A DNA stretch of 64,000 nt, from the NCBI RefSeq assembly GCF_964204645.1, contig NC_134026.1, forward strand, positions 30,972,150 to 31,036,149, in the 5' to 3' direction. A model generated the notes under the pieces. The model saw only the letters and a list, made by a program, of their open reading frames with translations. It searched no databases and was not told where the DNA came from. The stretch is from Tubulanus polymorphus. Taxonomy: Eukaryota > Animalia > Nemertea. Positions 7,771 to 31,291 of the stretch are shown one piece after another. Numbering within the stretch: position 1 is the first letter of the stretch; each line of letters begins with the position of its first letter. Both the position numbers and the translations under genes were made by a program.

Positions 7771-7975
7771 TTTGCGGATCTGATCCGTTCACTGCAGTAC
7801 AGACTAACAACCAATATATACTGAATATATTTTAGCCTAAAAAGTGGTTTACTAACATTTTTTATGTGTGCTTCATGTATATCTATTTGTAGACTCAGGT
7901 CGTGTACAGCCCCTTATCCCCAGAATTTCGTTTGAACACATGTTATCACAGTTAGACACACAATATCCGTGTATG

Positions 7976-9811: not shown

Positions 9812-10314
9812 GATTATCCCACTCTGGCTGTTACTTGTCGCTGGTCGATAACAATTTTGTAACCACTCGTTGTTCGGGCTAATGATCGATTTCCTCCAAA
9901 TCGCTGATAATGAGGAACAATTTGAATTCTGAGCTCAACGACTGAGATCATTAAAGTCTCTTTCTAGTGAAAATCAATTGGAAATAAGGATTCATTAGAG
10001 TTAGAATCGTCTTCGAGCGCCTTGGGGGCCCTTCCGGATCGAAGAAAATAATTTAGGAAGCCAAAACTTATTCTATTTTGTCATTCTATATTGTTCATTA
10101 TCTAAGGCTATAAGATTCTTTCATCCTCTTGTACCCCTGCGCACCCAACCGGCCGGACCGTACCGCGCCGAACCGCAACTGTGGCCCACATGAGAAGCGT
10201 TGTTTTTTTCAGATAGGAAAGGAATCACCTGCTCGTTGCGAGAATAGGTACAATAAAGTCTTCATTTCATTGGATATTTAGACTGGTTGCCGTTTTCTAT
10301 TTTCGATCCCTAGA

Positions 10315-10475
10315 TTGCCAGGGTCGACTTATGTTGGTGTACGAAAATTCCGTTATCGTTGAGTATAGCGGCAGCACCTTACGTTCCCGGGCCAGCGCGT
10401 TGACTGCCAGGGTCGACTCGTGTTAGTGTATGGAAATTCCGTTATCGATTACAATAGCGGCAGCACCTTACGGTG
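10315..10475. repeat. Tandem duplication, two ~88 bp copies
   Basis: TGCCAGGGTCGACT...AAATTCCGTTATCG...TAGCGGCAGCACCTTACG occurs twice. Confidence 0.75.
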
Positions 10476-10649
10476 TAGCGAGACAGTTTCAAATCGTATT
10501 ACGCCAATGATTTATATTTGTGACTGTGCATTTAAAACTAATTGCCTTTAGTAGAGTTATCTTACTAGAAGATACACGTAGAAAAGATGTAATTACGCTA
10601 TCAACCATTTCAATGGTTAAAAAGATTAAAACCCACTATTAAACCCACT

Positions 10650-10710
10650 ATAAAATAAACACCTGACGATGATCTCTAGGGTGAGATCGAAACGTCGTGT
10701 TTATTTTATA
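10650..10710 (+). ncRNA. Minimal type I hammerhead ribozyme (Penelope-type)
   Basis: TATAAAATAAACAC-CTGACGA-t-GATCTC-tagggt-GAGATC-GAAA-cGTC-GTGTTTATTTTATA: 14-bp stem I, 6-bp stem II, intact core, palindromic minimal stem III. Confidence 0.8.
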
Positions 10711-11052
10711 TTTTAGATTGTTCGAATAAATAAATTCTTGATTTTAAATTCTTTTAATCTGTAGATAGTGGGTTTTAATCTTTGTATCCGTTCACCACGT
10801 TTGAGTGTGGATATCGTACTGTTTCAATGGTGTTTGTATGAGGAAGAAAACCAGTTTACAAAAACACATGAATAAAAACATTAAGTATTTTAGTTGTAGC
10901 TTTTTTGTGTCCGTCGATGTCTTTAACTTCATGTAATGTGGATAAAGTTTAGGGAAACGACACTTAAATGGCAAATAATTAGAATTGTTGAGGGGATCAT
11001 GTGCAACAATTAATATGATCTCTGATGGATAACATCTACATCCACTTCCAGT

Positions 11053-11218
11053 CAGGCTGAGAGGTTTGGAAGGGTTCAGGCTGAGAGGGTTGTCAAGGTT
11101 CAGGCTGAGAGGGTTGGCAAGGTTCAGGCTGAGAGGGTTAGCAAGGTTCAGGCTGAGAGGGTTGACAGGGTTCAGGCTGAGAAGGTTGGCAGGGTTCAGG
11201 CTGAGAGGGTTGACAGGC
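11053..11218. repeat. 24-bp minisatellite, about 7 copies
   Basis: CAGGCTGAGAGGGTTGGCAAGGTT unit. Confidence 0.9.
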
Positions 11219-11679
11219 CGTAGATTGATCTTGTATTAATCTCATCGGTGTTCATCTCTTTTGAGGAGATTCAATTATAAAAGATTCTATCTAATCCGTG
11301 GTCAGTGGGGAATGGACTCTTGCCCAAATTACTGCCCAAAGTCAATTGGTCGATATGAAACAACTACAAACACTTGAACAGGATTTTATTATTAAAAACA
11401 TCAGGTTTAAACCAATATCAAGAGTAAAACCTGCTTTGATGAAAACAAACAGAGCCAGACACTTGATAAATCACAGTAATAAAATCAAGACTAATCAAAT
11501 TAATCAACAACAAATGATAAGATAAGATATATTCAACTAACGAAGTATTAGATCATTAAAATAATTTAATGATAATAAATCCACCAGACATTTGACACTC
11601 TTTATAAAAACATCAGACTTAAACAAATACTATTAAACACAAACTAAACTTTAATAACTTTAATCTATTTTCCATTTTA

Positions 11680-11907
11680 CTTTAAGTGTTACATCATACA
11701 AAAAAGTATTGATACTAGACTCCGCCCAAACATCCGACCCTCTTAATGAAAACTACAGATTAAAGATATTTTTTCGATACAAAGATATTTTTTTCTATAG
11801 AAAGATATATTCTCAATACAAAGATATTTTTTTCAATTAACTTTAAGTGTTACACCACACAAATATGTATTGATACTAGACTCCGCCCAAACATCCGACC
11901 CTCTTAA
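11680..11907. repeat. Direct duplication of ~67 bp
   Basis: CTTTAAGTGTTACA...GTATTGATACTAGACTCCGCCCAAACATCCGACCCTCTTAA at ~11680 and ~11841. Confidence 0.8.
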
Positions 11908-14007
11908 CTACAATTACAACTTACAAAATGTTATAGTGAACAAAGATATTTTCAACTTACTTTAATAACTTTAATTAAATGTTTCATTATACAAATTGAA
12001 TCATTTGATTCACAGATACTACTTAGAATATAGCGTAGTACGCTACAATACGAACAATGTCTCCGATTCAGGAAATACCACAAATCTGATGCGAGAAATT
12101 CAAGATCAAGAAATGACCCTCTTGATCTTTATTAACAATGACAGACTATCTGAATCAAATCATCAATCGAGCATTCTATGATATCAATCATTTATTTTTG
12201 AAGTTGATGGATTTTGTTTAATTGTGTGTTGGATTTTATTTGGTTTAGTGTTTGTTTATCATTAATTGAGTCCATAGAATGCTTCTAAGCGATCGACACA
12301 AAGAGATCCGAGTCACTGCTTACCGTACGTACAGTCCTCAGTTGCCAGAGACTGCTCTTCGATTTTCAACAGAAAGCAGTATTTCATGTATCGGAAAAAC
12401 ACTTCTAACTTATAATCAATTCAATAATTCTCTAACAATATAAGATAATCATACAGTGGAATTTATTTTTCAGCATAATGTTTCAGGTAACAACAATTAA
12501 AAAGTATTGTAGCTACAAACACTAATTCCTTATTAACACGACTCATAAAATACCAAAAACACCGAAATACCCGACTTTGAAAACAGTATAAGAGGAAACT
12601 TGATTGTATTGAAGTCTTGATTATAAAGGAAAACTTGATGAAACTTGATTATATTCCATGAAGTATCCAGCATTCTATCATATCTTAAGTAGTTGGTTTT
12701 TGTATTTTTGTGTTTTCAGTGGTTTGTATTTCAATGTGTATTTAAGTTTTAAGTGTTTGATTGTTTATGTGTAGTTGAGCTGATAGAATGCTGAAATAAC
12801 ATCACGGTCCTCGACCGACCGGAGGCTCGTACACTACAGACGACACACATCCTCAGTCAATAATAAACTGCTCCTCTCTATTTCCGGCAGGGTATTTACC
12901 GAATTGGTATTCTATGAATCGTCAAATGTTACATTATCTATTGAAAACAGTTTAATTAAACCAAGTCGTCCACGTAAAAAACAGTGACTCCAAAAATGAA
13001 GAGTGTATGGTATAACACTTAGCTGGAGACAACCGCAAAGAAAACTGCTGTTTCCTGAATTCTGCGTGCCATCCTACTAAAATCCTCCGCACTAAAACCA
13101 GAGACATTCCTAAACACTAAGTTCACTCTGGAAAGCGCAAGGTAAACAATCTATAACTAATTTAATTCATTTTTTTACATTATTATTATTACTACTTAAA
13201 AAACTTAAGTTTTACATTGTTTTTTTTACATGTTTTTCTACATTAATATTATTGAAACTTGAGAAACTAAGTTTTATATATTTGTTTTTCATGTTTTTCT
13301 ACATTAATATTATTACTACTTGAAAAACTAAGTTTGACATTTTTTTTCAATCAAAAATTATTACAAATTTTTTTTTTTTTCGTTAATTTTCCAGCATCCA
13401 TAAAACAATGAATATTCACATTAAGTGAATGGGAGAGGGGGTTTTAAAGGAAACTTGATCTTTAATCGTTTATTAGGCACATCCTATCGTGCTGCCAACA
13501 CCGGGCTTGTTAGTTTAAAAAAAAATAAAAGGGTTTGTTAGTACGCTTTGCGCTTTGTGCCTAGGATGCTTAAATAAACACTTAAACGATCAAGTAAAAT
13601 ATTGATGAAAGTGAATTGAATAGTTTAAGGGGAGATGTTTTATGAATGAAAGGAAAACTTATTTTGATTTCACTAGAAAAAGATACCAGATGTTGTAAAT
13701 AGGACTCATACATAACACACAAATTCACACACAGATTTACACACAGATTCGTACATGACCAACAAATACACATCAGAATCACACCTACCTTACACCACCT
13801 CCATTTGCATCATACTGCATCTGTTTCATCGTGAATTTCGGGGCCCCTTTTTAGAAATGCGCACTACACTAAACAATTGTTCGCTGATCACTGCTGCTCC
13901 TTCGATATATTGTTCATAAAAACTCTGCTGCTCCTTAGATATATTGTTTGTAAACTCGGCTAATCCCGCATATATTGTTTGTTAACTTTGCTGCTCCTTC
14001 GATTGTT

Positions 14008-14833
14008 GCTGGTTAGTAGACTCTCGGCTGGTGGTAGACTCTCGGCTGGTGGTAGACTCTCGGCTGGTGGTAGACTCTCGGCTGGTGGTAGACTCTCGGC
14101 TGGTAGTAGACTCTCGGCTGGTAGTAGACTCTCGGCTGGTGGTAGACTCTCGGCTGGTAGTAGACTCTCGGCTGGTGGTAGACTCTCGGCTGGTAGTAGA
14201 CTCTCGACTGGTAGTAGACTCTCGGCTGGTGGTAGACTCTCGGCTGGTGGTAGACTCTGGACTGGTGGTAGACTCTCGGCTGGTGGTAGACTCTCGGCTG
14301 GTGGTAGACTCTCGGCTGGTGGTAGACTCTCGGCTGGTAGTAGACTCTCGGCTGGTAGTAGACTCTCGGCTGGTGGTAGACTCTCGGCTGGTAGTAGACT
14401 CTCGGCTGGTGGTAGACTCTCGGCTGGTAGTAGACTCTCGACTGGTGGTAGACTCTCGGCTGGTGGTAGACTCTCGGCTGGTGGTAGACTCTCGGCTGGT
14501 GGTAGACTCTCGGCTGGTGGTAGACTCTCGGCTGGTGGTAGACTCTCGGCTGGTGGTAGACTCTCGGCTGGTGGTAGACTCTCGGCTGGTGGTAGACTCT
14601 CGGCTGGTGGTAGACTCTCGGTTGGTAGTAGACTCTCGACTGGTAGTAGACTCTCGGCTGGTGGTAGACTCTCGGCTGGTGGTAGACTCTCGGCTGGTGG
14701 TAGACTCTCGGCTGGTGGTAGACTCTCGGCTGGTGGTAGACTCTCGGTTGGTAGTAGACTCTCGACTGGTAGTAGACTCTCGGCTGGTGGTAGACTCTCG
14801 GTTGGTGGTAGACTCTCGGCTGGTGGTAGACTC
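14008..14833. repeat. 18-bp minisatellite, about 46 copies
   Basis: GCTGGTGGTAGACTCTCG unit; stop-free in all frames, which explains the overlapping ORFs. Confidence 0.95.
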
Positions 14834-15041
14834 TTGGCTATAGAAAAATGACGATGCAAAATATATCAATAAAATTCGATGAGATATTACTGCTTGGATA
14901 AAACATTTAATCTAATAATGAAATCGAAATTTCTTACCATAGAATTAACTAGAAACCATGACCTTTCTTCAGTCTTATTGTGGTTACACTATTGTCTCTG
15001 CTGCTCCTAAACTGAATTCTGCCATTACTGAACGTCACTGC

Positions 15042-15315
15042 AACTCTGCTAACTATCTGGAACTCTGCTAACTATCTGGAACTCTGCTAACTATCTGGAA
15101 CTCTGCTAACTATCTGGAACTCTGCTAACTATCTGGAACTCTGCTAACTATTTGGAACTCTGCTAACTATCTGGAACTCTGCTAACTATCTGGAACTCTG
15201 CTAACTATCTGGAACTCTGCTAACTATCTGGAACTCTGCTAACTATCTGGAACTCTGCTAACTATCTGGAACTCTGCTAACTATCTGGAACTCTGCTAAC
15301 TATCTGGAACTCTGC
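15042..15315. repeat. 19-bp minisatellite, about 14 copies
   Basis: AACTCTGCTAACTATCTGG unit. Confidence 0.95.
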
Positions 15316-15814
15316 TGGGATTTTCTGATGTCATCATAGCTGCTAAATTCGTCATCAGTTATTGTCTGGTCATCTCATCTCATGGCTTCATTTTGAAACA
15401 TTCAGCTGGAAAGAAATGATATTTTTGAGGTGTACAATCCGTTCGAACATCTTATTATTTTACATGGAGAAGTTAAAATCAGTCCCTGTCGTTTACAATT
15501 GCAATAATTGTATTATTTGATCAGTGATTGTCAATAAACCCCCGATTGATTAGTATTAGTAGCGTTAGTTAATCACTATTTAAGACAGTGATCATTAACG
15601 TAGATTTCTCTGATACAAGATCAGTTAACGTTGATTTTATACAAAGTCCGCAGTGTCTTTAAAAAGACATTGAGATCCTACTGAACCTCATTGTCCGAGG
15701 AGTTTTGATTTTCTTTTGACATTTTTCGGGGCTGTCTATTCTAAGACGATTTTTCTTTGATTAGGCGGGAAAAGGACTAATTGGAGTTTGTTAAGTTGGG
15801 AGCTAATAGAGAGA

Positions 15815-16218
15815 CTGGTAACGCCACCTATTGCTCAGGCCTTTTAGTCTCTGCGCTCTGATAGGAATAGACAGTACTAAAAGGTGGATGTGCGAGTTCT
15901 AGGCGACTGGTAACGCCACCTATCGCTCGTCACCATCCTACCTTTAGCACTGAGAGTTGGGAGCTATAGGAAGGCTGGTAGCGCCACCTATTATTGCTCA
16001 GGCACCATAGTCTCTGCGCACTTACCCGATGCTCTGATCAAAGTTTAATGTATTTTTAGTTTTAGGGGAGTTTTTGAGATCTAAGAGCTATAGGAAGGCT
16101 GGTAGCGCCACCTATTGCTCGGACACCATCATCTCCGCACACTTACCCGAAGCTCTGATTGTAAGGTTTCAGTGATCTTGGGAGAGTTTGAGAGGATGGT
16201 AGCACCACCTATTGGTCA
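15815..16218 (-). promoter_or_regulatory. Cluster of five co-oriented CTCF-like motifs (repeated at ~20586-20989 and ~25405-25808)
   Basis: TGGTA(A/G)CGCCACCTAT(T/C)GCTC x5; reverse complement GCAATAGGTGGCGCTA resembles the CTCF core CCACTAGRTGGCGC. Confidence 0.55.
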
Positions 16219-17112
16219 GGAATGGTCTACTCTTTGTCTCTGATAAGGCTGAATGCGTGGCTACCACAAGTGGCCAAGTGTCAAGTCAAACACAACTCAT
16301 TGTGATAAGTAATTACAGTCTCATGGATGAAACCAACTTCTTATTAATGCATTTCAAGAGGCACAAAATGTGACAGAACACTTTTAAACCAGTGTGCACT
16401 AAATATCAGTAAATCATATGAAAATATCAACTTGTCATCAAAAAGTGAAGCTTTGATTGAAAGAGATCTTGAAATGACTCTTTTTGAAATTGAGATTCCA
16501 CAAACAAAGATTGAGCCTTCAGTAAGAAGACATTTCAAATATTGTCAAAACTCTTGATATTGAGAATCAAGTAACAAAGATTCACTGACAACACTTGATA
16601 TATCAATATCTACTAATTGATGATATATCAAAATACTGATAGAAGTGACACAGTAATTAGCAACTAACATTCATAATTTCACATCAAAGGTTTCTCAAAT
16701 TCTTTTTCATGGATGATATTATCAGCGACTGGCTCTGAAATTCTCGATATCCTACAGTTTTTTTCAGTCAATAAGAAAAACACAAAAATTCTAATGAGTT
16801 TTTTCCGTCAAATAGAAAAAACAGAACTGAAGTTTTTCCGTCAAAATGAAAAACTCAATGTTAAGTGATACAGTAATTTTGTATTTCAAGTTTCAGATGA
16901 AATAGCGACAACCATTATTCATGCAGGTTTCATCTCTCAAATATTATTAGTCTGGTTTTCTGAATTCAAACTTAAGGAGTAGCGCAGCAGCAGCAGCAGC
17001 AGCACCAAACAAACATAGAAATCACCAAATAATTTTGAGAAATTCTTTCACATTTTAACTGATGACATTCAGAATACAATACATGTGATTAAAACAAATA
17101 TAATGATTATGC

Positions 17113-17718
17113 AAATGAGATTGGAGAGAGTGCCACAAATGAATCGGGACTTTCATCTAATACGAGCACGCTGAAAACAGAAACATGTGTTAAATTGAAT
17201 GAGGCAAACCATAATGTATAAGACACGAATGAGTTCGCGGTGGTCCTTTTTGACCGGTTAAACTGACTTAACAAAGAAAGAATGGTGAAATGTTGAATTG
17301 TAAATTTGTACTCGGAGAAGTCCCAAAACGACACCTCATCACTCATTTATTTTATCTCTAACCTAATCTAAACCGGTGTAAATATTGAACTCAACAGAAC
17401 TTCACATAAAATGAGATTGAATCATTAAGATGAAATTTGAAATATACATCAAAATTACGATATTTTGATAAAGTGCCATTGAGTGTATAAAGGACTTCAG
17501 TCTAATACGAGTACAAACAAATTAACGGTAAAAAATATGTGAAAAATATGAATGAAGGTAAATTGATTGAAATCGAACCATTTATGCAGAGCATTACATA
17601 AAATAACTACTACATAAATAAGTTCACACTAGTGGCCTTGAATTAGACCAGATTGAAACTGATAAATCTTTAGAATTGTACTCGGACAAGTCCTGTATTA
17701 ATTTCAAAAAAGGCACTT
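17113..17718 (-). ncRNA. Two diverged copies of a putative ~240-nt structured RNA element (also in units 2 and 3)
   Basis: Shared nested stems GTGCC, GGACTT/AAGTCC, CGAGYAC/GTACTCG and an inner GGYC/GACC hairpin; mismatches resolve as G-U pairs on the minus strand. Confidence 0.45.
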
Positions 17719-20160
17719 CATTTTTTTCTAGTTCCTTATCATTCTATTGACACTGGTATCACTGATATTTATTATCAGCAAAAATATATTAAACTAAATT
17801 TGAAGTGAAGTTTCAAAGCGTCAAAGCTTTTACTCACTACACTTTATTTCCAGGGATTTCTACTTTTGATTGTTTGGTGCAAATTTAATCAATTAGAGTA
17901 TTTTAAATAACCAGACATTTTTTCATTTTGACTGAAACCTGCTCCAAGAAGGTTGCGCAGATTTGTATATAATTGATAATAAACAGATTAAATTTCTACT
18001 TAATTTCAATAATTCTATAAGATATTCATATCTATATAAATATCAATATTCAATATCGAAATTAATTTTTTCGACTTTACTTCAAATTGAATTCACTTAC
18101 GGAATTTCATTTTTCAAAACAATGAATTCGAAGGTAAGAACTTCCCTTGATTTTCTGAGAAACAATAGTTTTGTATCGAAATGATATTTCATGAACAAAG
18201 TGAGAAGGAAATTCAATCGATTCCTTTCAAAATAAAGATATAACTAACAAAGATGGAATGACGATTCTTTTACGATCAATTTTCACAAGATTCAGACGAT
18301 TGACTAAGATTAAAATGAGATACTTCAATTGATTCAATTCAACTTTTTAACTTCACTTCTAAAAGCATTTGATCATCATCGATATTGAAATATTGATGTA
18401 TAAAAATATTGGATTTATTGTGAATCCTTTGCAAAATAGAGATTTCAGTAACTAAGATGGAATGATGATTTTTCTTCAGAAGATCAAGATTTCACTATAA
18501 ATTCTGTAAGTTGACCTTAATTTGCCTAACACTTACTGGGAATCCAGAACTTTCAAACAAGTAAAACTAAATATCAACTCCACATCAAAATATGAGGCTT
18601 CATTAAAAGAGATCTCGATGATTCTTTTTTAAATTGAGATTGAGAAATCGGTAAGAAAATATTTGGAATATTGCAAATACTTAAGCGATTACGATTTCAA
18701 GTAAAAAAATACTGAACACCCCGAGATTTTACACATTTCTACAGAGACAATTAACAAATTAATTAAAAGAATTTATCTTTAAGAATTTATTTCAAATTGA
18801 GGAATAGGAACTTTGACGATAAAATGATTAAAACAGAGCTTGCGGAGATGATCTTATTACACGTAAAGGCACAAGACAAGCGTGCTCACCACTGAACCGA
18901 TAGAACTTAAGTCTAATTAGTCAGTGATTAAACAGCGCTTGATTTCGTTATACAAAATACTATGAGAAACTAGTAACTATTTTAAACAGTTTCTAGTTTC
19001 TATAATACACCTTTCACAGAGCTCACAGAGACAATTTGAACTTTGTTAGTAGGATTTAGGGGGGCTAGCGATCGAACTAATGGTTATACACCTTCATATA
19101 ATCTTTTCAGTCAAACAAACTGTAACAACTAATATTCTATATTATATTCTCTCCTATATTGAGTCACATTATTTCTCTATCACAGAACTTTATAAAGATA
19201 AACGTTTAATACTTTTTGGGCTAGTGAGACTATGTTTAGTTAGTACATCTAGCCAAGTGAACTAGCGTCCACGCGACTAGTGACTAAACAGCTTATAAAA
19301 TACTATAACGAGACAACTTATTTTCAGACGCTGCAAGCGTGCTCAGCATTAGACCTAGAGAACAAGTCAACTAGGCTAAAATATACACCTTTTAACAGTT
19401 ACACATTTCAGAACAGATACTGAATTCATAACAGCTTACAATGATTTAAGGCAAGCTCATTAAACCACTCAACATTTACAAGATTATTACTGATCAATAA
19501 CTATATCAAATTACTGCTTGGCAGATGTAATAAGAATTTACTAACACTTTTACAAAGCAAGTTCTTTCTATCTTAACACACGAGTAAAGCTAATATACGT
19601 TATATTAATTCCAGCACAGAGCTAACAGAGACAAGATCTTTTTTTGAACGATTTTGTTAGCAAAATTTTGGCCCAATAGAGGTTTTGTTATGAGGCTGAT
19701 AAAGAGAAAAGTCGTTTTACGATCTTTTCCTTTAAGTTTTCTTATGTGAAGTAATGATTGTGAACTCGTGCGGTGCAGACACAGAACATCGTTTAACGAT
19801 TTTGTGTCATTTGGATGATTTTTTTTCTTTTCACTTTCAGTTAGATATTAAGCGTTAGAAATCTAAGTTTTTTGAGAGGAGCTTTTAAAAAAGCTTTTCG
19901 ACACCTCATTCTTAGTGTATTTTTACACATTCTACTTTTGGGTTTTGTAAACCCTGTAGCGCTCCACTCTATCCTTTCTCTCCCGCAATAGAAAAATAAA
20001 TCAAACTTAGCTTTTTTATATTGCGACAATCATCAGTGTGGATCAACTGCGAGGTAGTGTGGATCAACTGGTGGTTCCACGATGCATCTGTTGGATTCTT
20101 CTGGTAGTATTTATGAACATGACTGTGCTAATTCCGCAGCATTACTTATCGTCTAGATTT

Positions 20161-23100
20161 ATTTTGAAACATTCAGCTGGAAAGAAATGATATTTTTGAG
20201 GTGTACAATCCGTTCGAACATCTTATTATTTTACATGGAGAAGTTAAAATCCGTCCTTGTCGTTTACAATTGCAATAATTGTATTATTTGATCAGTGATT
20301 GTCAATAAACCCCCGATTGATTAGTATTAGTAGCGTTAGTTAATCACTATTTAACACAGTGATCATTAACGTAGATTTCTCTGATACAAGATCAGTTAAC
20401 GTTGATTTTATACAAAGTCCGCAGTGTCTTTAAAAAGACATTGAGATCCTACTGAACCTCATTGTCCGAGGAGTTTTGATTTTCTTTTGACATTTTTCGG
20501 GGCTGTCTATTCTAAGACGATTTTTCTTTGATTAGGCGGGAAAAGGACTAATTGGAGTTTGTTAAGTTGGGAGCTAATAGAGAGACTGGTAACGCCACCT
20601 ATTGCTCAGGCCTTTTAGTCTCTGCGCTCTGATAGGAATAGACAGTACTAAAAGGTGGATGTGCGAGTTCTAGGCGACTGGTAACGCCACCTATCGCTCG
20701 TCACCATCCTACCTTTAGCACTGAGAGTTGGGAGCTATAGGAAGGCTGGTAGCGCCACCTATAATTGCTCAGGCACCATAGTCTCTGCGCACTTACCTGA
20801 TGCTCTGATCAAAGTTTAATGTATTTTTAGTTTTAGGGGAGTTTTTGAAATCTAAGAGCTATAGGAAGGCTGGTAGCGCCACCTATTGCTCGGACACCAT
20901 CATCTCCGCACACTTACCCAAAGCTCTGATTGTAAGGTTTCAGTGATTTTGGGAGAGTTTGAGAGGATGGTAGCGCCACCTATTGCTCAGGAATGGTCTA
21001 CTCTTCGTCCCTGATAAGGCTGAATGCGTGGCTACCACAAGTGGCCAAGTGTCAAGTCAAACACAACTCATTGTGATAAGTAATTACAGTCTCATGGATG
21101 AAACCAACTTCTTATTAATGCATTTCAAGAGGCACAAAATGTGACAGAACACTTTTAAACCAGTGTGCACTAAATATCAGTAAATCATATGAAAATATCA
21201 ACTTGTCATCAAAAAGTGAAGCTTTGATTGAAAGAGATCTTGAAATGACTCTTTTTGAAATTGAGATTCCACAAACAAAGATTGAGCCTTCAGTAAGAAG
21301 ACATTTCAAATATCGTCAAAACTCTTGATATTGAGAATCTAGTGACAAAGATTCACTGACTGCACGTGATATATCAATATCTACTAATTGACGATATATC
21401 AAAATACTGATAGAAGTGACACAGTAATTAAACTAACATTCATAATTTCACATCAAAAGTTTCTCAAATTCTTTTTCATGGATGATATTATCAGAGGACT
21501 GGCTCTGAAATTCTCGATATCCTACAGTGTTTTTCAGTCAAAAAGAAAAACACAAAAATTCTAATGAGTTTTTTCCGTCAAATTGAAAAAAACAGAATTG
21601 AAGTTTTTCCGTCAAAATGAAAAACTCAATGTTAAGTGATACAGTAATTTTGTATTTCAAGTTTCAGATGAAATAGCGACAACCATCATTCATGCAGGTT
21701 TCATCTCTCAAATATTATTAGTCTGGTTTTCTGAATTCAAACTTAAGGAGTAGCGCAGCAGCAGCAGCAGCAGCAGCAGCAAACAAACATAGAAATCACC
21801 AAATAATTTTGAGAAACTCTTTCACATTTTAACTGATGACATTCAGAATACAATACATGTGATTAAAACAAATATAATGATTATGCAAATGAGAGTGGAG
21901 AGAGTGCCACAAATGAATCGGGACTTTCATCTAATACGAGCACGCTGAAAACAGAAACATGTATTAAATTGAATGAGGCAAACCATTATGTATAAGACAT
22001 GAATGAGTTCGCGGTGGTCCTTTTTGACCGGTTAAACTGACTTAACAAATAAAGAATGGTGAAATGTTGAATTGTAAATTTGTACTCGGAGAAGTCCCAA
22101 AACGACACCTCACCACTCATTTATTTTATCTCTAACCTAATGCTATTAATAGAACTCCACACAAAAAAACATAAAACAGCCTTAAATAAATGATATTGAA
22201 TATGAATTTTACCTCAAAATACCTCAAAATTACTATATTTTGAAAAAGTGCCATTGAATGTTGAAGGACTTCAGTCTAATACGAGTACAAACAAATTAAC
22301 GGTAAAAATATATTCAAAATTTGAATGAAGGTAAATTGATTGAAATCGAACCATTTATGCAGAGCATTACATAAAATAACTACTACATAAATAAGTTCAC
22401 ACTAGTGGCCTTGAATTAGACAAGATTGAAACTGATAAATCTTTAGAATTGTACTCGGACAAGTCCTGTATTTATTTCAAAAAAGGCACTTCATTTTTTT
22501 CTAGTTCCTTATCATTCTATTGACACTGGTATCACTGATATTTATTATCAGCAAAAATATATTAAACTAAATTTGAAGTGAAGTTTCAAAGCGTCAAAGC
22601 TTTTACTCACTACACTTTATTTCAAGGGATTTCTACTTTTGATTGTTTGGTGCAAATTTAATCAATTAGAGTATTTTAAATAACCAGACATTTTTTCATT
22701 TTGACTGAAACCTGCTCCAAGAAGGTTGCGCAGATTTGTATTAAATTGATAATAAACTGATCAAATTTCTACTTAATGTCAATAATTCTATAAGATATTC
22801 ATATCTATATAAATATCAATATTCAATATCGATATTAATTTTTTTGACTTTACTTCAAATTGAATTCATTTACGGAATTTCATTTTTCAAAACAATGAAT
22901 TCGAAGGTAAGAACTTCCCTTGATTTTCTGAGAAACAATAGTTTTGTATCGAAATGATATTTCATGAACAAAGTGAGAAGGAAATTCAATCAATTCCTTT
23001 CAAAATAAAGATATAACTAACAAAGATGGAATGACGATTCTTTTACGATCAATTTTCACAAGATTCAGACGATTGACTAAGATTATATTTACATTCGAAA

Positions 23101-24980
23101 TTACATGAACAAAATGAGAAACTTCAATTGATTCAATTCAACTTTTTAACTTCACTTCTAAAAGCATTTGATCATCATCGATATTGAAATATTGATGTAT
23201 AAAAATATTGGATTCATTGTGAATCTTTTGCAAAATAGAGATTTCAGTAACTAAGATGGAATGGTGAGTCTTCTTTAGAAGATCAAGATTTCACTATAAA
23301 TTCTCTAAGTTGATCTTAATTTACCTAACACTTACTGGGGAATCCAGAACTTTCAAACAAGTAAAACTAAATATCAACTCCACATCAAAATATGAGGCTT
23401 CATTAAAAGAGATCTCGATGATTCTTTTTTAAATTGAGATTGAGAAATCGGTAAGAAAATATTTGGAATATTGCAAATACTTAAGCGATTACGATTTCAA
23501 GTAAAAAAATACTGAACACCCCGAGATTTTACACATTTCTACAGAGACAATTAACAAATTAATTAAAAGAATTTATTATTAAGAATTTATTTCAAACTGA
23601 GGAATAGGAACTTTGACGATAAAATGATTAAAACAGAGCTCGCGGAGATGATCTTATTACATGTAATGGCACAAGACAAGCGTGCTCACCACTGAACCGA
23701 TAGAACTTAAGTCTAATTAGTCAGTGATTAAACAGCGCTTGATTTCGTTATACAAAATACTATGAGAAACTAGTAACTATTTTAAACAGTTTCTAGTTTC
23801 TATAATACACCTTTAACAGAGCTCACAGAGACAATTTGAACTTTGTTAGTAGGATTTAGGGGGGCTAGCGATCGAACTAATGGTTATACACCTTCATATA
23901 ATCTTTTCAGTCAAACAAACTGTAACAACTAATATTCTATATTATATTCTCTCCTATATTGAGTCACATTATTTCTCTATCACAGAACTTTATAAAGATG
24001 ATGTTTAATACTTTTGGGCTAGTGAGACTATGTTTAGTTAGTACATCTAGCCAAGTGAACTAGCGTCCACGCGACTAGTGACTAAACAGCTTATAAAATA
24101 CTATAACGAGACAACTTATTTTCAGACGCTGCAAGCGTGCTCAGCATTAGACCTAGAGAACAAGTCAACTAGGCTAAAATATACACCTTTTAACAGTTAC
24201 ACATTTCAGAACAGATACTGAATTCAAAACAACTTACAATGATTTAAGGCAAGCTCATTAAACCACTCAACATTTACAAGATTATTACTGATCAATAACT
24301 ATATCAAATTACTGCTTGGCAGATGTAATAAGAATTTACTAACACTTTTACAAAGCAAGTTCTTTCTATCTTAACACATGAGTAAAGCTAATATACGTTA
24401 TATTAATTCCAGCACAGAGCTAACAGAGACAAGATCTTTTTTTGAACGATTTTGTTAGCAAAATTTTGGCCCAATAGAGGTTTTGTTATGAGGCGATAAA
24501 GAGAAAAGTCGTTTTACGATCTTTTCCTTTAAGTTTTCTTATGTGAAGTAATGATTGTGAACTCGTGCGGTGCAGACACAGAACATCGTTTAACGATTTT
24601 GTGTCATTTGGATGATTTTTTTTCTTTTCACTTTCAGTTAGATATTAAGCGTTAGAAATCTAAGTTTTTTGAGAGGAGCTTTTAAAAAAGCTTTTCGACA
24701 CCTCATTCTTAGTGTATTTTTACACATTCTACTTTTGGGTTTTGTAAACCCTGTAGCGCTCCACTCTATCCTTTCTCTCCCGCAATAGAAAAATAAATCA
24801 AACTTAGCTTTTTTATATTGCGACAATCATCAGTGTGGATCAACTGCGAGGTAGTGTGGATCAACTGGTGGTTCCACGATGCATCTGTTGGATTCTTCTG
24901 GTAGTATTTATGAACATGACTGTGCTAATTCTCCGTAGAATCTTCCGTTGGTCTCGCAGCATTAGTTATCGTCTAGATTT
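20161..24980. repeat. ~4.8 kb tandem macro-repeat, unit 2
   Basis: Highly similar to units 1 and 3, with scattered substitutions and indels. Confidence 0.95.
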
Positions 24981-27900
24981 ATTTTGAAACATTCAGCTGG
25001 AAAGAAATGATATTTTTGAGGTGTACAATCCGTTCGAACATCTTATAATTTTACATGGAGAAGTTAAAATCAGTCTCTGTCATTTACAATTGCAATAATT
25101 GTATTATTTGATCAGTGATTGTCAATAAACCCCCGATTGATTAGTATTAGTAGCGTTAGTTAATCACTATTTAACACAGTGATCATTAACGTAGATTTCT
25201 CTGATACAAGATCAGTTAACGTTGATTTTATACAAAGTCCGCAGTGTCTTTAAAAAGACATTGAGATCCTACTGAACCTCATTGTCCGAGGAGTTTTGAT
25301 TTTCTTTTGACATTTTTCGGGGCTGTCTATTCTAAGACGATTTTCTTTGATTAGGCGGGAAAAGGACTAATTGGAGTTTGTTAAATTGGGAGCTAATAGA
25401 GAGACTGGTAACGCCACCTATTGCTCAGGCCTTTTAGTCTCTGCGCTCTGATAGGAATAGACAGTACTAAAAGGTGGATGTGCGAGTTCTAGGCGACTGG
25501 TAACGCCACCTATCGCTCGTCACCATCCTACCTTTAGCACTGAGAGTTGGGAGCTATAGGAAGGCTGGTAGCGCCACCTATTATTGCTCAGGCACCATAG
25601 TCTCTGCGCACTTACCTGATGCTCTGATCAAAGTTTAATGTATTTTTAGTTTTAGGGGAGTTTTTGAAATCTAAGAGCTATAGGAAGGCTGGTAGCGCCA
25701 CCTATTGCTCGGACACCATCATCTCCGCACACTTACCCAAAGCTCTGATTGTAAGGTTTCAGTGATTTTGGGAGAGTTTGAGAGGATGGTAGCACCACCT
25801 ATTGCTGAGGAATGGTCTACTCTTCGTCTCTGATAAGGCTGAATGCGTGGCTACCACAAGTGGCCAAGTGTCAAGTCAAACACAACTCATTGTGATAAGT
25901 AATTACAGTCTCATGGATGAAACCAACTTCTTATTAATGCATTTCAAGAGGCACAAAATGTGACAGAACACTTTTAAACCAGTGTGCACTAAATATCAGT
26001 AAATCATATGAAAATATCAACTTGTCATCAAAAAGTGAAGCTTTGATTGAAAGAGATCTTGAAATGACTCTTTTTGAAATTGAGATTCCACAAACAAAGA
26101 TTGAGCCTTCAGTAAGACGACATTTCAAATATCGTCAAAACTCTTGATATTGAGAATCTAGTGACAAAGATTCACTGACTGCACGTGATATATCAATATC
26201 TACTAATTGACGATATATCAAAATACTGATAGAAGTGACACAGTAATTAAACTAACATTCATAATTTCACATCAAAAGTTTCTCAAATTCTTTTTCATGG
26301 ATGATATTATCAGAGGACTGGCTCTGAAATTCTCGATATCCTACAGTGTTTTTCAGTCAAAAAGAAAAACACAAAAATTCTAATGAGTTTTTTCCGTCAA
26401 ATAGAAAAAACAGAATTGAAGTTTTTCCGTCAAAATGAAAAACTCAATGTTAAGTGATACAGTAATTTTGTATTTCAAGTTTCAGATGAAATAGCGACAA
26501 CCATCATTCATGCAGGTTTCATCTCTCAAATATTATTAGTCTGGTTTTCTGAATTCAAACTTAAGGAGTAGCGCAGGAGTAGCGCAGCAGCAGCGGCAGC
26601 AGCACCAAACAAACATAGAAATCACCAAATAATTTTGAGAAACTCTTTCACATTTTAACTGATGACATTCAGAATACAATACATGTGATTAAAACAAATA
26701 TAATGATTATGCAAATGAGATTGGAGAGAGTGCCACAAATGAATCGGGACTTTCATCTAATACGAGCACGCTGAAAACAGAAACATGTGTTAAATTGAAT
26801 GAGGCAAACCATTATGTATAAGACATGAATGAGTTCGCGGTGGTCCTTTTTGACCGGTTAAACTGACTTAACAAATAAAGAATGGTGAAATGTTGAATTG
26901 TAAATTTGTACTCGGAGAAGTCCCAAAACGACACCTCACCACTCATTTATTGTATCTCTAACCTAATGCTATTAATAGAACTGTACACAAAAAAAACATA
27001 AAACAGCCTTAAATAAATGATATTGAATATGAATTTTACCTCAAAATACCTCAAATTACTATATTTTGAAAAAGTGCCATTAAATGTTGAAGGACTTCAG
27101 TCTAATACGAGTACAAACAAATTAACGGTAAAAATATATTCAAAATTTGAATGAAGGTAAATTGATTGAAATCGAACCATTTATGCAGAGCATTACATAA
27201 AATAACTACTACATAAATAAGTTCACACTAGTGGCCTTGAATTAGACCAGATTGAAACTGATAAATCTTTAGAATTGTACTCGGACAAGTCCTGTATTTA
27301 TTTCAAAAAAGGCACTTCATTTTTTTCTAGTTCCTTATCATTCTATTGACACTGGTATCACTGATATTTATTATCAGCAAAAATATATTAAACTGAATTT
27401 GAAGTGAAGTTTCAAAGCGTCAAAGCTTTTACTCACTACACTTTATTTCAAGGGATTTCTACTTTTGATTGTTTGGTGCAAATTTAATCAATTAGAGTAT
27501 TTTAGATAACCAGACATTTTTTCATTTTGACTGAAACCTGCTCCAAGAAGGTTGCGCAGATTTGTATTAAATTGATAATAAACTGATCAAATTTCTACTT
27601 AATGTCAATAATTCTATAAGATATTCATATCTATATAAATATCAATATTCAATATCGAAATTAATTTTTTTGACTTTACTTCAAATTGAATTCATTTACG
27701 GAATTTCATTTTTCAAAACAATGAATTCGAAGGTAAGAACTTCCCTTGATTTTCTGAGAAACAATAGTTTTGTATCGAAATGATATTTCATGAACAAAGT
27801 GAGAAGGAAATTCAATCAATTCCTTTCAAAATAAAGATATAACTAACAAAGATGGAATGACGATTCTTTTACGATCAATTTTCACAAGATTCAGACGATT

Positions 27901-29661
27901 GACTAAGATTATATTTACATTCGAAATTACATGAACAAAATGAGATACTTCAATTGATTCAATTCAACTTTTTAACTTCACTTCTAAAAGCATTTGATCA
28001 TCATCGATATTGAAATATTGATGTATAAAAATATTGGATTCATTGTGAATCTTTTGCAAAATAGAGATTTCAGTAACTAAGATGGAATGGTGAGTCTTCT
28101 TTAGAAGATCAAGATTTCACTATAAATTCTCTAAGTTGATCTTAATTTACCTAACACTTACTGGGGAATCCAGAACTTTCAAACAAGTAAAACTAAATAT
28201 CAACTCCACATCAAAATATGAGGCTTCATTAAAAGAGATCTCGATGATTCTTTTTTAAATTGAGATTGAGAAATCGGTAAGAAAATATTTGGAATATTGC
28301 AAATACTTAAGCGATTACGATTTCAAGTAAAAAAATACTTAACACCCCGAGATTTTACACATTTCTACAGAGACAATTAACAAATTAATTAAAAGAATTT
28401 ATCATTAAGAATTTATTTCAAATTGAGGAATAGGAACTTTGACGATAAAATGATTAAAACAGAGCTCGCGGAGATGATCTTATTACACGTACTGGCACAA
28501 GACAAGCGTGCTCACCACTGAACCGATAGAACTTAAGTCTAATTAGTCAGTGATTAAACAGCGCTTGATTTCGTTATACAAAATACTATGAGAAACTAGT
28601 AACTATTTTAAACAGTTTCTAGTTTCTATAATACACCTTTCACAGAGCTCACAGAGACAATTTGAACTTTGTTAGTAGGATTTAGGGGGGCTAGCGATCG
28701 AACTAATGGTTATACACCTTCATATAATCTTTTCAGTCAAACAAACTGTAACAACTAATATTCTATATTATATTCTCTCCTATATTGAGTCACATTATTT
28801 CTCTATCACAGAACTTTATAAAGATAAACGTTTAATACTTTTTGGGCTAGTGAGACTATGTTTAGTTAGTACATCTAGCCAAGTGAACTAGCGTCCACGC
28901 GACTAGTGACTAAACAGCTTATAAAATACTATAACGAGACAACTTATTTTCAGACGCTGCAAGCGTGCTCAGCATTAGACCTAGAGAACAAGTCAACTAG
29001 GCTAAAATATACACCTTTTAACAGTTACACATTTCAGAACAGATACTGAATTCAAAACAACTTACAATGATTTAAGGCAAGCTCATTAAACCACTCAACA
29101 TTTACAAGAATATTACTGATCAATAACTATATTAAATTACTGCTTGGCAGATGTAATAAGAATTTACTAACACTTTTACAAAGCAAGTTCTTTCTATCTT
29201 AACACACGAATAAAGCTAATATACGTTATATTAATTCCAGCACAGAGCTAACAGAGACAAGATCTTTTTTTGAACGATTTTGTTAGCAAAATTTTGGCCC
29301 AATAGAGGTTTTGTTATGAGGCTGATAAAGAGAAAAGTCGTTTTACGATCTTTTCCTTTAAGTTTTCTTATGTGAAGTAATGATTGTGAACTCGTGCGGT
29401 GCAGACACAGAACATCGTTTAACGATTTTGTGTCATTTGGATGATTTTTTTTCTTTTCACTTTCAGTTAGATATTAAGCGTTAGAAATCTAAGTTTTTTG
29501 AGAGGAGCTTTTAAAAAAGCTTTTCGACACCTCATTCTTAGTGTATTTTTACACATTCTATTTTTGGGTTTTGTAAACCCTGTAGCGCTCCACTCTCTCC
29601 TTTCTCTCCCGCAATAGAAAAATAAATCAAACTTAGCTTTTTTATATTGCGACAATCATCA
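24981..29661. repeat. ~4.8 kb tandem macro-repeat, unit 3
   Basis: Highly similar to units 1 and 2; similarity ends at GACAATCATCA ~29661. Confidence 0.95.
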
Positions 29662-29679
29662 CTGGGAGGTAGTGCTCTC

Positions 29680-29962
29680 AGTAGTTCTAGTAGTAGTAGT
29701 TCATTTTCTAGGAGTTCATCTTTTAGTTCTAATAGTTCATTGGACCCTAGTAGTGCCGTAGTTACTAGTAGTAGTTCATTTTCTAGGAGTTCATCTTTTA
29801 GTTCTAATAGTTCATTGGACCCTAGTAGTGACGTAGTTACTAGTAGTAGTTCATCTTCTAGGAGTTCATCTTCTAGTTAGAATAGTTCATTGGACCCTAG
29901 TAGTGCTGTGGTTTCTAGTAGTAGTTCATCTTCTAGTAGTTCTAGTAATTAGTTCATCTTCT
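29680..29962. repeat. ~75-bp minisatellite built of TAG/TTC sub-repeats, about 3.5 copies
   Basis: AGTAGTTCATTTTCTAGGAGTTCATC...TTGGACCCTAGTAGTG recurs at ~75 bp spacing. Confidence 0.85.
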
Positions 29963-31291
29963 CGATGTTCTAGGTCGTGGCTGGTCGACAACTTGGTTCA
30001 TCTTGCATTTGATGCATTCTTCTGACGGTCTCCATAAAAAAACACTTTCTGCGGCTGGAAATAAAGAAAATAGTAGATAATTTCTTGGAATCAGAATGTT
30101 AACGTTTACAATATGAAGCAAAGAAAAAAATATAGTTCAATCTCTGCGAGTAGAAACATGGATTATTACAACAAAATGAAAATAAATTGGGAATACAAAA
30201 AATTACGATTTATGAAAATGATTCTATGAAATTGTTATCAAAGTGTTCACAACAACTTTATTAGATGCAATGTTACTGGATATAAGACAATTACAATCAA
30301 TCCATAATTTAGAATTCAAACTTTCTCACCATGAAAACGGATGTTCTTGTTCTTGTTTTATTTAATTCAGCCCAGCACATCAGGACAGCATACAGGCAGC
30401 ACGGTGGCTCAGACATGAGTGCGGCGATTTAGACAGGGCGCCAACTGCTCTCAAACCTATTGACGCGTTACCGGATTAGGTTGGGAGACTATAGGCAACG
30501 GGCTGGCATTTTTACAGTGACCAATCAGAGAGAGCATCGTCCTTGAATAGATTCACCGCGCGAGGTCGAGGTTGACTCGTTCCGCTCTGGCCGACTCGAA
30601 ACCCTTCACCGCCGCCCGTTCCGCTAATAAACACCGGACTCGAACAGACCCTTCCACATTCATAGTGTATTTCATTATTACGATAGAAAGAATTAATCAA
30701 ATCTTAGAGATCTTAAAATCTAATTCTTAAAGTGGCCCGCCCGTCTCTCACTCGTGACAAAAAAGCATTTTTTCAACTGGATGTGGTTTAGACATTTTAA
30801 AACCCGATTTTCAATTAACTCAGATTTAAGACTGCACTTGGAATCAAGCCTCCAATCGGCTCCGAGAGGCAATATTATATCTCAGACAGTAGCGAGAGAG
30901 TCTGACTGATGTCATTTCGAATTCAAATTCTGGTGTCATCTCTGAATCCTCAAAGTCCCTGACTCGTTGATTCGTGATCAAACTCAATTAGATTCACTCT
31001 CTTATAGTCCCGAGAGGTCTCGGAGCCCGCGCCTCCTCAAAATTGAGAAAATTTTGAAAATTTGCCTGCTCAAATGGCATATTGATACCGGACCCATACG
31101 AAACTAGAAAAATATGGAAATTGTATCGACGGCGTAATCGATTCATTTTAAAAATAATATAGATCAATCTTTCGGACAAATCAGCTGATGTAAAATAAGT
31201 CTCAGTGGGGCTCGAATCGCCAAAAGTTTGTACAGGGCTGTCGAGACTGTGATTAAGAAATAACCGATTCAATATTCAATTCAATTCAATA

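Follow-up and report, generated by a model that had tools for sequence, protein, structure and literature searches.

The stretch of DNA analysed here (the window) comprises 64,000 nucleotides of Tubulanus polymorphus contig NC_134026.1 (assembly GCF_964204645.1, positions 30,972,150 to 31,036,149). It harbors a non-coding cassette situated between a gene for a seven-transmembrane receptor (GPCR) and SNRNP27, with the following main features:

8786..9934, minus strand: single-exon 7TM receptor ORF, a neighbour outside the cassette
11034..30860, minus strand: the whole cassette, whose ends match within a few bases in the window copy and those at C1:4.57 Mb and C3:1.92 Mb
11052..11217, unstranded: 24-bp minisatellite (x6.9) at the left end of the cassette
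11715..11906, unstranded: 30-bp GC-box-like word in two copies, present in 7/7 cassette copies
14016..14839, unstranded: 18-bp minisatellite (x45.8), with a post-ATG frame that varies among copies
15038..15316, unstranded: 19-bp minisatellite (x14.7)
15387..20038, minus strand: macro-repeat unit 3 (self-alignment)
20039..24835, minus strand: macro-repeat unit 2 with spacer (self-alignment)
24836..29664, minus strand: macro-repeat unit 1 in the predicted order of transcription, with spacer (self-alignment)
29691..29942, unstranded: 75-bp minisatellite (x3.4) in predicted exon 2
31292..33092, plus strand: SNRNP27 (PF08648; spliced joints in read run X4), a neighbour outside the cassette

The original prediction confined the feature to 11000..30420; the feature is real, yet its right limit was set too short, as the cassette reaches ~30860. 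The three 4.8-kb tandem units which it described are evident from self-alignment of the window (15387-24835 vs 20158-29664, 97.5% identity; 15387-20038 vs 24978-29664, 96.5%), with periods of 4829 and 4797 bp and a spacer of 119-142 bp that is absent from the third unit. Every window unit indeed holds a motif cluster, of five motifs, and internal diverged doublets, and the 75-, 19- and 18-bp minisatellites were recovered along with a fourth, of 24 bp. Contigs assembled from the reads of runs X2 and X3 extend past 29661 into spacer sequence, thus a head-to-tail junction exists outside the assembly, either here or at another multi-unit locus.

The claim that the stretch lacks a recognisable protein ORF holds: all frames of at least 90 codons within 11000-30420 are minisatellite-derived, the three of them searched against Pfam gave no match, and no ORF is common to the seven cassette copies. 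A coding reading was considered and rejected, as the peptides following the exon-1 ATG (9-33 aa) are mutually unlike and the frame after the second ATG varies from copy to copy; post-ATG frames so different indicate that no protein is conserved.

The SNRNP27 ATG, at 31292, lies 432 bp off the cassette end, and the GPCR gene is 1100 bp distant on the other side. The head-to-head placement with SNRNP27 was correct as to the identity of the gene, but not as to its meaning: flanking genes are unlike at each of the seven loci, and the position is incidental since the other six copies adjoin other neighbours. An inverted-repeat piece at 10313-10474 was dismissed as a cassette end: oriented inward, it is a short dispersed element in its own right.

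Seven dispersed copies and their movement

The cassette occurs at seven loci on six large contigs (the window copy W, C1a at C1:4.57 Mb, C1b at C1:25.99 Mb, C3:1.92 Mb, C5, C6 and C8), each composed of 1-4 units, in total 18 units that are 72-99% identical to each other. Hence, the view of a non-coding, gene-like macro-repeat with CTCF-type motifs stands by sequence evidence, while that of a single locus gives way to a dispersed seven-locus family. A motif 20-mer has 60 matches genome-wide, 60/60 inside these loci. This confinement, and the fact that promoter- and splice-like signals travel together with the units, argue that the cassette is not an ordinary high-copy transposon, the outcome that would have spoken against the original prediction. 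C4, C7, C9, C10, C11 and C12 gave no copy in a search that could miss very diverged ones, and C1 has two; as at least five large contigs are devoid of it, the cassette is not a one-per-chromosome pairing or centromere element. A 31-mer scan of metagenomes yielded 0 matches. All seven loci are located 0.5-6 Mb from a contig end (p=0.018 vs uniform placement; p=8e-4 vs 31 carrier-transposon sites, a post hoc comparison with contigs taken as chromosomes). Some copies are interrupted by transposons.

The C5 and C1b copies reside inside a Zisupton-type transposon, with common ends and 8-bp target duplications (exact at C5, offset by ~10 nt at C1b). Within this carrier family, 14 of the 17 members having both ends show a matching 8-bp duplication; the terminal inverted repeat of ~58 bp is imperfect (81%), its outer 9 nt being unlike, and the cargo consists of GPCR genes in one member and the cassette in two. 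The member on C11 contains a 248-aa transposase-like frame, itself without a Pfam match, which is 40-44% identical to CxC4/Ulp1 (KDZ) proteins and matches six proteins, five with CxC4 (PF18717), at E 1e-39 to 1e-50. Zisupton (KDZ) elements are characterized by 8-bp target duplications and terminal inverted repeats (PMC12730594). A Mutator-like carrier, associated with 9-bp duplications, was rejected as the duplication is 8 bp.

10484..31122, unstranded: wider segment common with the C5 copy inside the Zisupton-type transposon, comprising the cassette and the flanks of the window locus

The C5 and C1b copies were carried by a non-autonomous element of this type, the likely captor of the window locus plus its flanks, and the units would have expanded afterwards, mainly in place. 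Zisupton is the carrier for only two of the seven copies, whereas its end sequences are absent from the window and from the vicinity of C1a, C3, C6 and C8. Pack-type cargo capture is described mostly in plants in the literature searched; here, an invertebrate carrier holds the cassette as cargo. Since the predicted introns are retained in the copies, the cassette moved as DNA.

In W, C1a and C3, both ends coincide within a few bases amid unrelated flanks, and the left ends read A|TC. Helitrons start with 5' TC after A and terminate with a 3' hairpin followed by CTRR and then T. Besides a weak hairpin, the ends of these three copies have neither CTRR|T nor terminal inverted repeats, and target duplications are absent as well. 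The left-end 19-mer has five exact genome matches, each in a cassette copy; that end is therefore not common to a large family or an autonomous partner. Neither an LTR/LARD element nor a retrozyme agrees with units that are internal and number 1-4, with no terminal repeats and no hammerhead (Rfam).

Trees of different cassette parts conflict, and therefore the copies have exchanged DNA between chromosomes. In AU tests on clades named after the trees were viewed, a grouping of C5 with C1b is rejected by the unit data (p-AU 2e-9) and one of W with C5 by the 3' data (p-AU 5e-4); W and C1a are 94.6% identical in the unit vs 78.7% in the 5' part. The 17-unit tree omits one C8 unit and includes C1a_u2, misaligned by an insertion; later tests used one unit per locus.

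Promoter-, splice- and CTCF-like signals and predicted folds

The elements of interest within the window copy are as follows:

12165..12795, minus strand: two predicted stems of 11-12 bp, each enclosing an A/C-rich loop of ~100 nt, in 7/7 copies
14838..14937, minus strand: predicted intron 2, 100 nt, with a donor side resembling that of intron 1
15813..16218, minus strand: five CTCF-type motifs, unit 3
20584..20989, minus strand: five CTCF-type motifs, unit 2
24997..25021, minus strand: unit-end acceptor, also at 20177 and 15406
25094..25280, minus strand: conserved block ~100-280 nt ahead of the unit-end acceptor, with short hairpins and recurrent ACTAAY words
25403..25808, minus strand: five CTCF-type motifs, unit 1, of which 3/5 score 11-17 bits and four overlap a predicted hairpin
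26741..27300, minus strand: two domains of ~190-215 nt (26741-26931 and 27086-27300), whose ends are predicted to pair in an interrupted 16-bp helix
30055..30329, minus strand: predicted intron 1, 275 nt, with its donor word (30332-30323) invariant in 7/7 copies
30418..30660, minus strand: promoter-like block with CCAAT (30521-30525), an invariant 10-mer (30535-30544), and GGCGC and ACGCGT words

The minus-strand splice-like sites expected at ~30330/30055 and ~14938/14838 are present: the intron-like stretches 30329-30055 and 14937-14838 begin with ATG|GTRAGA donors and end with pyrimidine-rich YAG acceptors. The promoter-like block and the exon-1 donor are kept in all seven copies, and the intron-1 acceptor in six, being deleted in C1b. 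For predicted intron 2, the donor and an AG acceptor persist in 5/5 young copies; at this position C6 and C8 carry 3-4 different short GT-AG modules. Of the proposed single acceptor per unit, the unit-end acceptor itself was confirmed (17/18 units, with changes inside the pyrimidine tract), but not its being the only one, as units contain further splice-like sites. In the 5' region the seven copies are 64-94% identical, and 44% of alignment columns do not vary; the longest invariant runs there, two of 10 nt each, are the exon-1 donor and the promoter word. GTRAGT words number 120 on the minus vs 18 on the plus strand, counts that are not independent.

As for the read-derived contigs, run X4 contains GT..AG-spliced contigs of the neighbour genes, and five among its contigs listed fall on unit 1; these are strandless and may stem from carried-over DNA, the sequence being present in 18 copies. 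No cassette splice junction occurs among the 15 of 38 X4 joints listed; X4 gives no cover at 30094-30464 (the exon 1 region) and 30836-31577, which we weigh neither way. Runs X1-X3 show unspliced and intergenic contigs, whose summed depths are not copy numbers. Depth in X2 and X3 is uneven along the unit, and run X5 placed only 0 and 1 contigs.

We detected 3-8 CTCF-type motifs per unit and 5-23 per locus, 96 in total, all on the same strand; instances were found using the core itself, thus its invariance is partly by construction. With a JASPAR CTCF matrix, hits of at least 12 bits are 55/55 on the minus strand inside cassettes vs 17 plus/20 minus outside, and 1/500 column-shuffled matrices matched the number of hits in a unit. 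As a CTCF site the motif is sub-optimal, reaching 17 of 31 bits, and two of the five per window unit score below 10 bits. C6 and C8 carry further, different variants, AGATGGCAG and AGATGGCGC, on the identical strand; the three distinct variants share one orientation. The genome encodes a conserved CTCF gene (best PDB match human CTCF, E 3e-61; 88% to Lingula CTCF), and a CTCF pattern has 1006 matches genome-wide vs 21 for a reversed control. In the cassette motifs, invariance reaches 3-4 nt beyond the CTCF core, whereas dispersed CTCF sites show no such extension. A donor-like word lies 15-45 nt upstream of 49/96 motifs, GTAAG being found upstream of some in the unit-1 cluster.

Conserved positions cluster in short blocks and predicted stems, with 10 invariant runs of at least 20 nt vs 0.14 expected. 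For blocks set on C3/C6/C8, variation among W/C5/C1b amounts to 0.038 vs 0.073 elsewhere (p=1e-3); the effect persists after control for GC, CpG and gaps (odds ratio 0.55, p=0.011) and has the same direction in 3/3 further triplets. The block test was negative for the 3' part of the cassette (0.053 vs 0.060, p=0.79), and the rates between C6 and C8 are uncorrelated with the long internal branch (rho -0.01). Variation also tracks base composition (rho -0.27 to -0.35), and gene conversion alone can keep high-identity blocks alike.

The two-domain region recurs at 21915-22474 and 17141-17701. Its domain B favors a minus-strand fold (consensus z -3.4, with 8 consistent and 3 broken pair types, against z -1.4, with 1 and 9, on the plus strand), as does the motif cluster (z -4.9/-6.3 vs -1.9/-2.3). 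Covariation in domain B is thin, with both-side change in 1/16 pairs, a value reached by 191/500 shuffles. Variant hairpin arms beat a mutation null in 6/26 cases, mostly where indels inflate distance, and the strand test on stem changes (3 G.U, 1 A.C and 4 mismatch states) involves two overlapping stems and too few states. A domain-B covariance model gave 34 strong matches in 420 kb of sequence searched, all in the seven loci, and a genome search with a domain-B 16-mer revealed no additional locus. The suggestion that the stretch hosts small structured RNAs found no support among known families: Rfam returned only three Histone3 matches at chance level (E 0.13) and no hammerhead, and a tRNA search of the cassette detected none.

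Competing readings and known counterparts

The reading that we favour, tentatively and at somewhat short of an even chance, is that this protein-less family with promoter- and splice-like signals and same-strand CTCF-type arrays represents an independently evolved, mobile and multi-chromosome FIRRE/DXZ4-like type of lncRNA locus. Judging from its sequence, the cassette likely makes a nuclear non-coding RNA; by analogy, its arrays likely anchor chromatin loops. The DNA array would bind CTCF and halt cohesin coming from one direction, while a spliced minus-strand Pol II transcript would not leave the locus, where it would act as a structured scaffold. The sequence exchange between the loci suggests that they may cluster in the nucleus. 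An extended version, unlikely in so full a form, envisages a mobile ‘architectural cassette’, a self-contained non-coding gene that combines CTCF sites arrayed in one polarity with a structured RNA bound to its locus; spread by transposons to several chromosome ends, its copies would join in one nuclear hub, exchange sequence there, and form an independently evolved, multi-chromosome invertebrate counterpart of the DXZ4-FIRRE-ICCE hub.

Foremost among the rivals, though itself rather unlikely, is a selfish low-copy non-autonomous element, Helitron-like or other, which would keep its ends, insulator motifs and promoter for mobility or escape from silencing with no host role. It accords with the three loci that share both ends amid unrelated flanks and a Helitron-like A|TC left end, with the two copies moved by a known transposon type, and with flanking genes unlike at each locus; yet the W, C1a and C3 ends lack the remaining hallmarks, the left-end 19-mer is restricted to the family, and DNA movement needs neither splice sites nor RNA stems, which are the best-kept parts. 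We consider it improbable that the copies arose by duplication of a decayed gene or repeat region and evolve neutrally, their conserved blocks being due to gene conversion and uneven mutation and their CTCF match incidental. Inter-locus exchange, the dependence of variation on base composition, the negative 3' block test and the mucin-like open frames from minisatellites point that way, but the promoter block and the exon-1 donor are lost in no copy despite up to 36% divergence, three CTCF motif variants share one direction, the block effect survives composition control, and post-ATG frames unlike between copies leave no conserved protein.

It is also possible, with a low probability, that the RNA itself is the point, its donor-like words, ACUAAY and hairpins with an invariant GYUACCA loop serving a splicing-factor body (LL2R- or hsr-omega-like) or small RNAs, with the CTCF likeness secondary. 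The donor-like words upstream of about half of the motifs, the minus-strand folding bias and the invariance past the CTCF core agree with this, while the first motif type per cluster keeps the core and folds poorly (-4 to -10 vs -12 to -21 kcal/mol), no Rfam family, tRNA or hammerhead was found, and ACTAAY overall exhibits little strand bias. This RNA-centred reading and the favoured FIRRE/DXZ4-like one are not exclusive.

Among the mammalian loci, units measure 3 kb in DXZ4 and ~5 kb in ICCE, where they hold at most four CTCF motifs; the transcribed FIRRE, DXZ4 and ICCE loci contain CTCF arrays, Dxz4 motifs have a common polarity, conservation reaches beyond the CTCF core, and FIRRE has local repeats in exons and introns (PMC6985041, PMC6125249, PMC4820808). 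The cassette likewise has kilobase tandem units, several CTCF-type motifs of the same polarity and conservation past the core. In contrast to these X-linked loci, it forms seven homologous loci of 1-4 units on six contigs, and is mobile and AT-rich; its genome is of spiralian type, without known X inactivation, and paired YY1 sites are not evident. Homology to FIRRE, DXZ4 and ICCE is neither shown nor expected, and being spread over seven loci on six invertebrate contigs, the cassette is an analogue and not a member of that group. LL2R of the chicken lampbrush ‘lumpy loops’ is a one-strand tandem-repeat transcription unit with excess donor sites, for which a role in nucleating a condensate of splicing factors has been proposed (bioRxiv 10.64898/2026.03.19.712899). 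As described there, it is a single locus with a short repeat and a retrotransposon promoter, whereas the cassette is multi-locus, has complex 4.8-kb units and CTCF-type arrays, and brings a promoter-like block of its own. Primate core duplicons (LCR16a/NPIP, TBC1D3) consist of a ~10-30 kb transcribed core at dispersed, often end-proximal sites with interlocus conversion, and D4Z4 is a CTCF-binding macrosatellite near chromosome ends. Both carry protein-coding frames, unlike the cassette.

We found no such cassette family in the literature searched, which includes few subscription papers. If transcribed, the cassette would be a rare invertebrate architectural lncRNA, with paralogues that already point out which motifs are constrained, and would exemplify the transport of an entire non-coding gene, insulator array included, by a transposon. 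According to a 2023 review, which cites a single spiralian study, direct evidence of CTCF-driven loop extrusion is lacking in invertebrates (PMC10658181). A sharp Hi-C prediction follows from the seven natural arrays, which lie at known places in both orientations and hold 5 to 23 same-facing sites: stripes or boundaries on one side, their extent set by the number of units, and inter-locus dots. Relative to the nearest contig end, five of the seven loci face inward, a proportion that is not significant.

Cassette family and its seven loci

Self-alignment of the window bears out the three 4.8-kb tandem units of the original prediction, which lie head-to-tail at 15387–29664 with identities of 96.5–97.5% and periods of 4829 and 4797 bp. 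The 75-, 19- and 18-bp minisatellites are where they had been placed, each downstream of a pyrimidine-rich minus-strand acceptor, and SNRNP27 is indeed the right-hand neighbor. No recognizable protein ORF was expected, and frames of at least 90 codons within the region are all minisatellite-derived. Tandem units are also present beyond the assembly itself, since contigs from two public sequencing runs span the joint between unit and spacer; the feature is real. Read depth along the unit (window 24900–29700) is uneven in the same way in three runs of one sample (X2, X3, X4), rising over the motif cluster and the start of the unit and dropping in the middle, unlike in a further run (X1), where it is flat.

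The original prediction proposed searching the unit against its own genome (268 Mb, 77 contigs); this search matched six further places, and the unit is thus not confined to the window locus. Queries with the 5′ and 3′ parts match the same six places, all of which, when fetched and aligned, hold the entire cassette in the same order. No eighth locus was found genome-wide with three independent patterns.

Cassette copies on the large contigs of the assembly (C1–C12)
C2 (window copy, 11034–30860, minus strand): 3 units
C5:1.72 Mb: 1 unit
C1:25.99 Mb (copy C1b): 1 unit
C1:4.57 Mb (copy C1a): 3 units
C3:1.92 Mb: 4 units
C6:1.99 Mb: 3 units
C8:16.16 Mb: 3 units

Units cluster mostly by locus. Five copies form a young group with units 92–99% alike, and the C6 and C8 units are 72–79% identical to these. 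All seven loci lie 0.5–6.1 Mb from a contig end, which is a post hoc observation. The genes adjoining the cassette differ at every locus; thus, the putative promoter is part of the cassette, and the predicted head-to-head placement with SNRNP27, correct in position, is local to the window copy. The C3 copy carries a 6.1-kb insertion in its 3′ part (~1933300–1939500) with long overlapping frames of 770–982 aa, which we take to be DIRS-like in appearance, and the middle unit of C1a is interrupted by a ~3-kb element.

Gene-like anatomy and predicted RNA structure

On the minus strand, the cassette opens with a promoter-like block, whose words we take to be CCAAT and others, followed by a short predicted exon ending in ATG/GTGAGA, a predicted intron of ~210–275 nt and an exon with a variable minisatellite. 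Next come 1–4 units, each with a TTYCAG-type acceptor at its end and a spacer of 110–210 nt after it; one to four short predicted GT-AG introns and a 3′ part of ~3 kb complete the cassette. In the 5′ region, no invariant run shared by all seven copies is longer than those at the exon-1 donor and at a word of the promoter-like block, and 17 of 18 units retain the unit-end acceptor. No donor is evident immediately after the spacer; donor-like GTAAG words occur upstream of 49 of the 96 CTCF-type motifs. Since peptides following ATGs are short, or their frame differs from copy to copy, the cassette is, judged from its sequence, non-coding.

Contigs of X4 with GT..AG splicing were found for SNRNP27 and across an intron of the next gene. 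Unit 1 (24836–29664, first in transcription order) is matched by at least five X4 contigs of 212–537 nt, one bearing variants of other copies; they are compatible with transcription of the family, though strandless and possibly due to DNA carry-over. Among the 15 joints listed of 38 in X4, none is a cassette junction. Near the 3′ end (11715–11906), all seven copies retain a doubled 30-bp GC-box-like word, which might act as an additional promoter or as an antisense one.

The unit holds 10 invariant runs of length at least 20, against 0.14 from shuffled columns. Blocks delimited on one set of three copies show half the frequency of variation in a second set of three (p = 1e-3), and the effect persists after composition control (odds ratio 0.55, p = 0.011). 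The 3′ part does not pass this block test, and of three correlations between branch pairs, one is absent. The conserved blocks include an ACTAAY-rich block and a doubled ~200-nt domain. Each copy of this domain is closed by a predicted 16-bp helix (99% of cells paired, two-sided change in one pair only), and its predicted folding is stronger for the minus strand. Two predicted stems in the 3′ part are kept in 7/7 copies. These features are suggestive of conserved RNA structure in the cassette, rather than establishing it.

CTCF-type motif array and proposed mechanism

We found GAGCAATAGGTGGCGCTACCAG in 3–8 copies per unit (96 in total, 15 in the window copy). Scored with a matrix that we take to be JASPAR MA0139.1, the best sites reach ~17 of 31 bits (p ~ 8e-7), and matches of at least 12 bits are on the minus strand in 55 of 55 cases within cassettes, whereas outside they split into 17 plus and 20 minus. 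Shuffled matrices equalled the real one in 3/500 cases for best score and 1/500 for number of matches. Different CTCF variants occur in C6 and C8, again on the minus strand. A CTCF gene is present in the genome; its zinc fingers share 88% identity with their Lingula and Paralvinella counterparts, which suggests a spiralian. The CTCF pattern gives 1006 matches genome-wide versus 21 for the control, among them single sites whose G-C-A or A-A-T starts recur in the cassettes. Two findings speak against a CTCF role: two of five motifs in each window unit score below 10 bits, and invariance extends 3–4 nt past the CTCF core in cassette motifs, unlike in 20 dispersed sites. A hairpin overlaps most motifs, the first motif per cluster retaining the core and not the hairpin, and only 6 of 26 hairpin variant arms beat the mutation null. 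We regard the motif core primarily as a putative DNA site, to which the hairpin might add an RNA layer. Another tandem array of CTCF-like motifs lies at window 58150–58513, where the unit of a 38-bp minisatellite (x9.6) contains CACCAGGTGGCG.

In layout, the cassette resembles DXZ4, FIRRE and ICCE, the last described with ~5-kb units and up to four CTCF motifs (PMC6125249). Yet it falls outside this group, being neither single nor X-linked and having no homology to it. No invertebrate, multi-chromosome or mobile version of such a locus was found in the literature searched.

We tentatively favor a mechanism in which a CTCF array, a retained RNA and converging loci act together, a reading that is possible rather than probable and of which the sequence steps are shown. 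That the cassette is instead a selfish low-copy element seems unlikely; an RNA-only scaffold or small-RNA host is somewhat harder to credit, and neutral duplicates shaped by conversion are the most doubtful. Under the CTCF and retained-RNA mechanism, polar arrays bound by CTCF would stop cohesin arriving from one direction, in the way reported for Dxz4 (PMC6985041). A minus-strand transcript, spliced slowly or partially, would stay at its locus and could recruit RNA-binding proteins via repeated stems and donor-like words, such recruitment being described for FIRRE repeats (PMC4820808) and LL2R RNA (bioRxiv 10.64898/2026.03.19.712899). Cassette loci would come near enough to recombine.

Spread and exchange of cassettes

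The C5 and C1b copies share ends beyond the extent of the window copy (~390 bp left, ~250 bp right), which also occur in about 30 other elements of 2.5–10.6 kb. A matching 8-bp target duplication flanks 14 of 17 members with both ends, and in one member open frames carry C2H2 and OTU as well as a segment 40–44% identical to CxC4/Ulp1 proteins. In its duplication this carrier family is like Zisupton, described as making 8-bp duplications and having terminal inverted repeats (PMC12730594). The member with the C2H2, OTU and CxC4/Ulp1-like (transposase-like) frames, a 10.6-kb Zisupton-type element (C11:10328685–10339306), is a candidate autonomous partner of the ~30 non-autonomous copies. Another (C8:10803483–10812921) carries several GPCR gene pieces as further cargo capture; C1b also holds a GPCR fragment. 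As the C5/C1b cargo includes the window locus flanks (window equivalent 10484–31122), that locus was likely its donor.

No carrier ends were found at the window, C1a and C3 copies, which end at identical points (~11034 and ~30860); the left flank of the window copy recurs in a fragment 0.5 Mb away, and the shared sequence stops precisely at the first of these points. Such defined ends without carrier ends imply a second mechanism of spread, separate from the Zisupton-type carrier. The left end matches a Helitron start, but the right end does not. A short high-copy inverted-repeat element in the left flank (10618–10821) is absent from the C5 copy and from the paralogous flank at C2:31.48 Mb. 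The C3 and C6 copies are each bracketed by direct repeats of ~80–290 bp, 0.5–3.5 kb out, which could be insertion-route traces or local duplications.

The unit and 3′-part trees conflict (p-AU 2e-9 and 5e-4, for groups named after the trees had been seen), and the window and C1a copies are 94.6% identical in the unit versus 78.7% in the 5′ part; thus, copies on different chromosomes have exchanged DNA.

Elsewhere in the window, three paralogous genes (6943–7788, 60481–61059, 61504–62175) encode secreted proteins with a cysteine-rich domain, presumably frizzled-type, and a coiled-coil tail; one lies ~53 kb from the other two, inverted. A 2-kb satellite at 45738–47776 has periods of 24, 76 and 100 bp and partial inverted symmetry.
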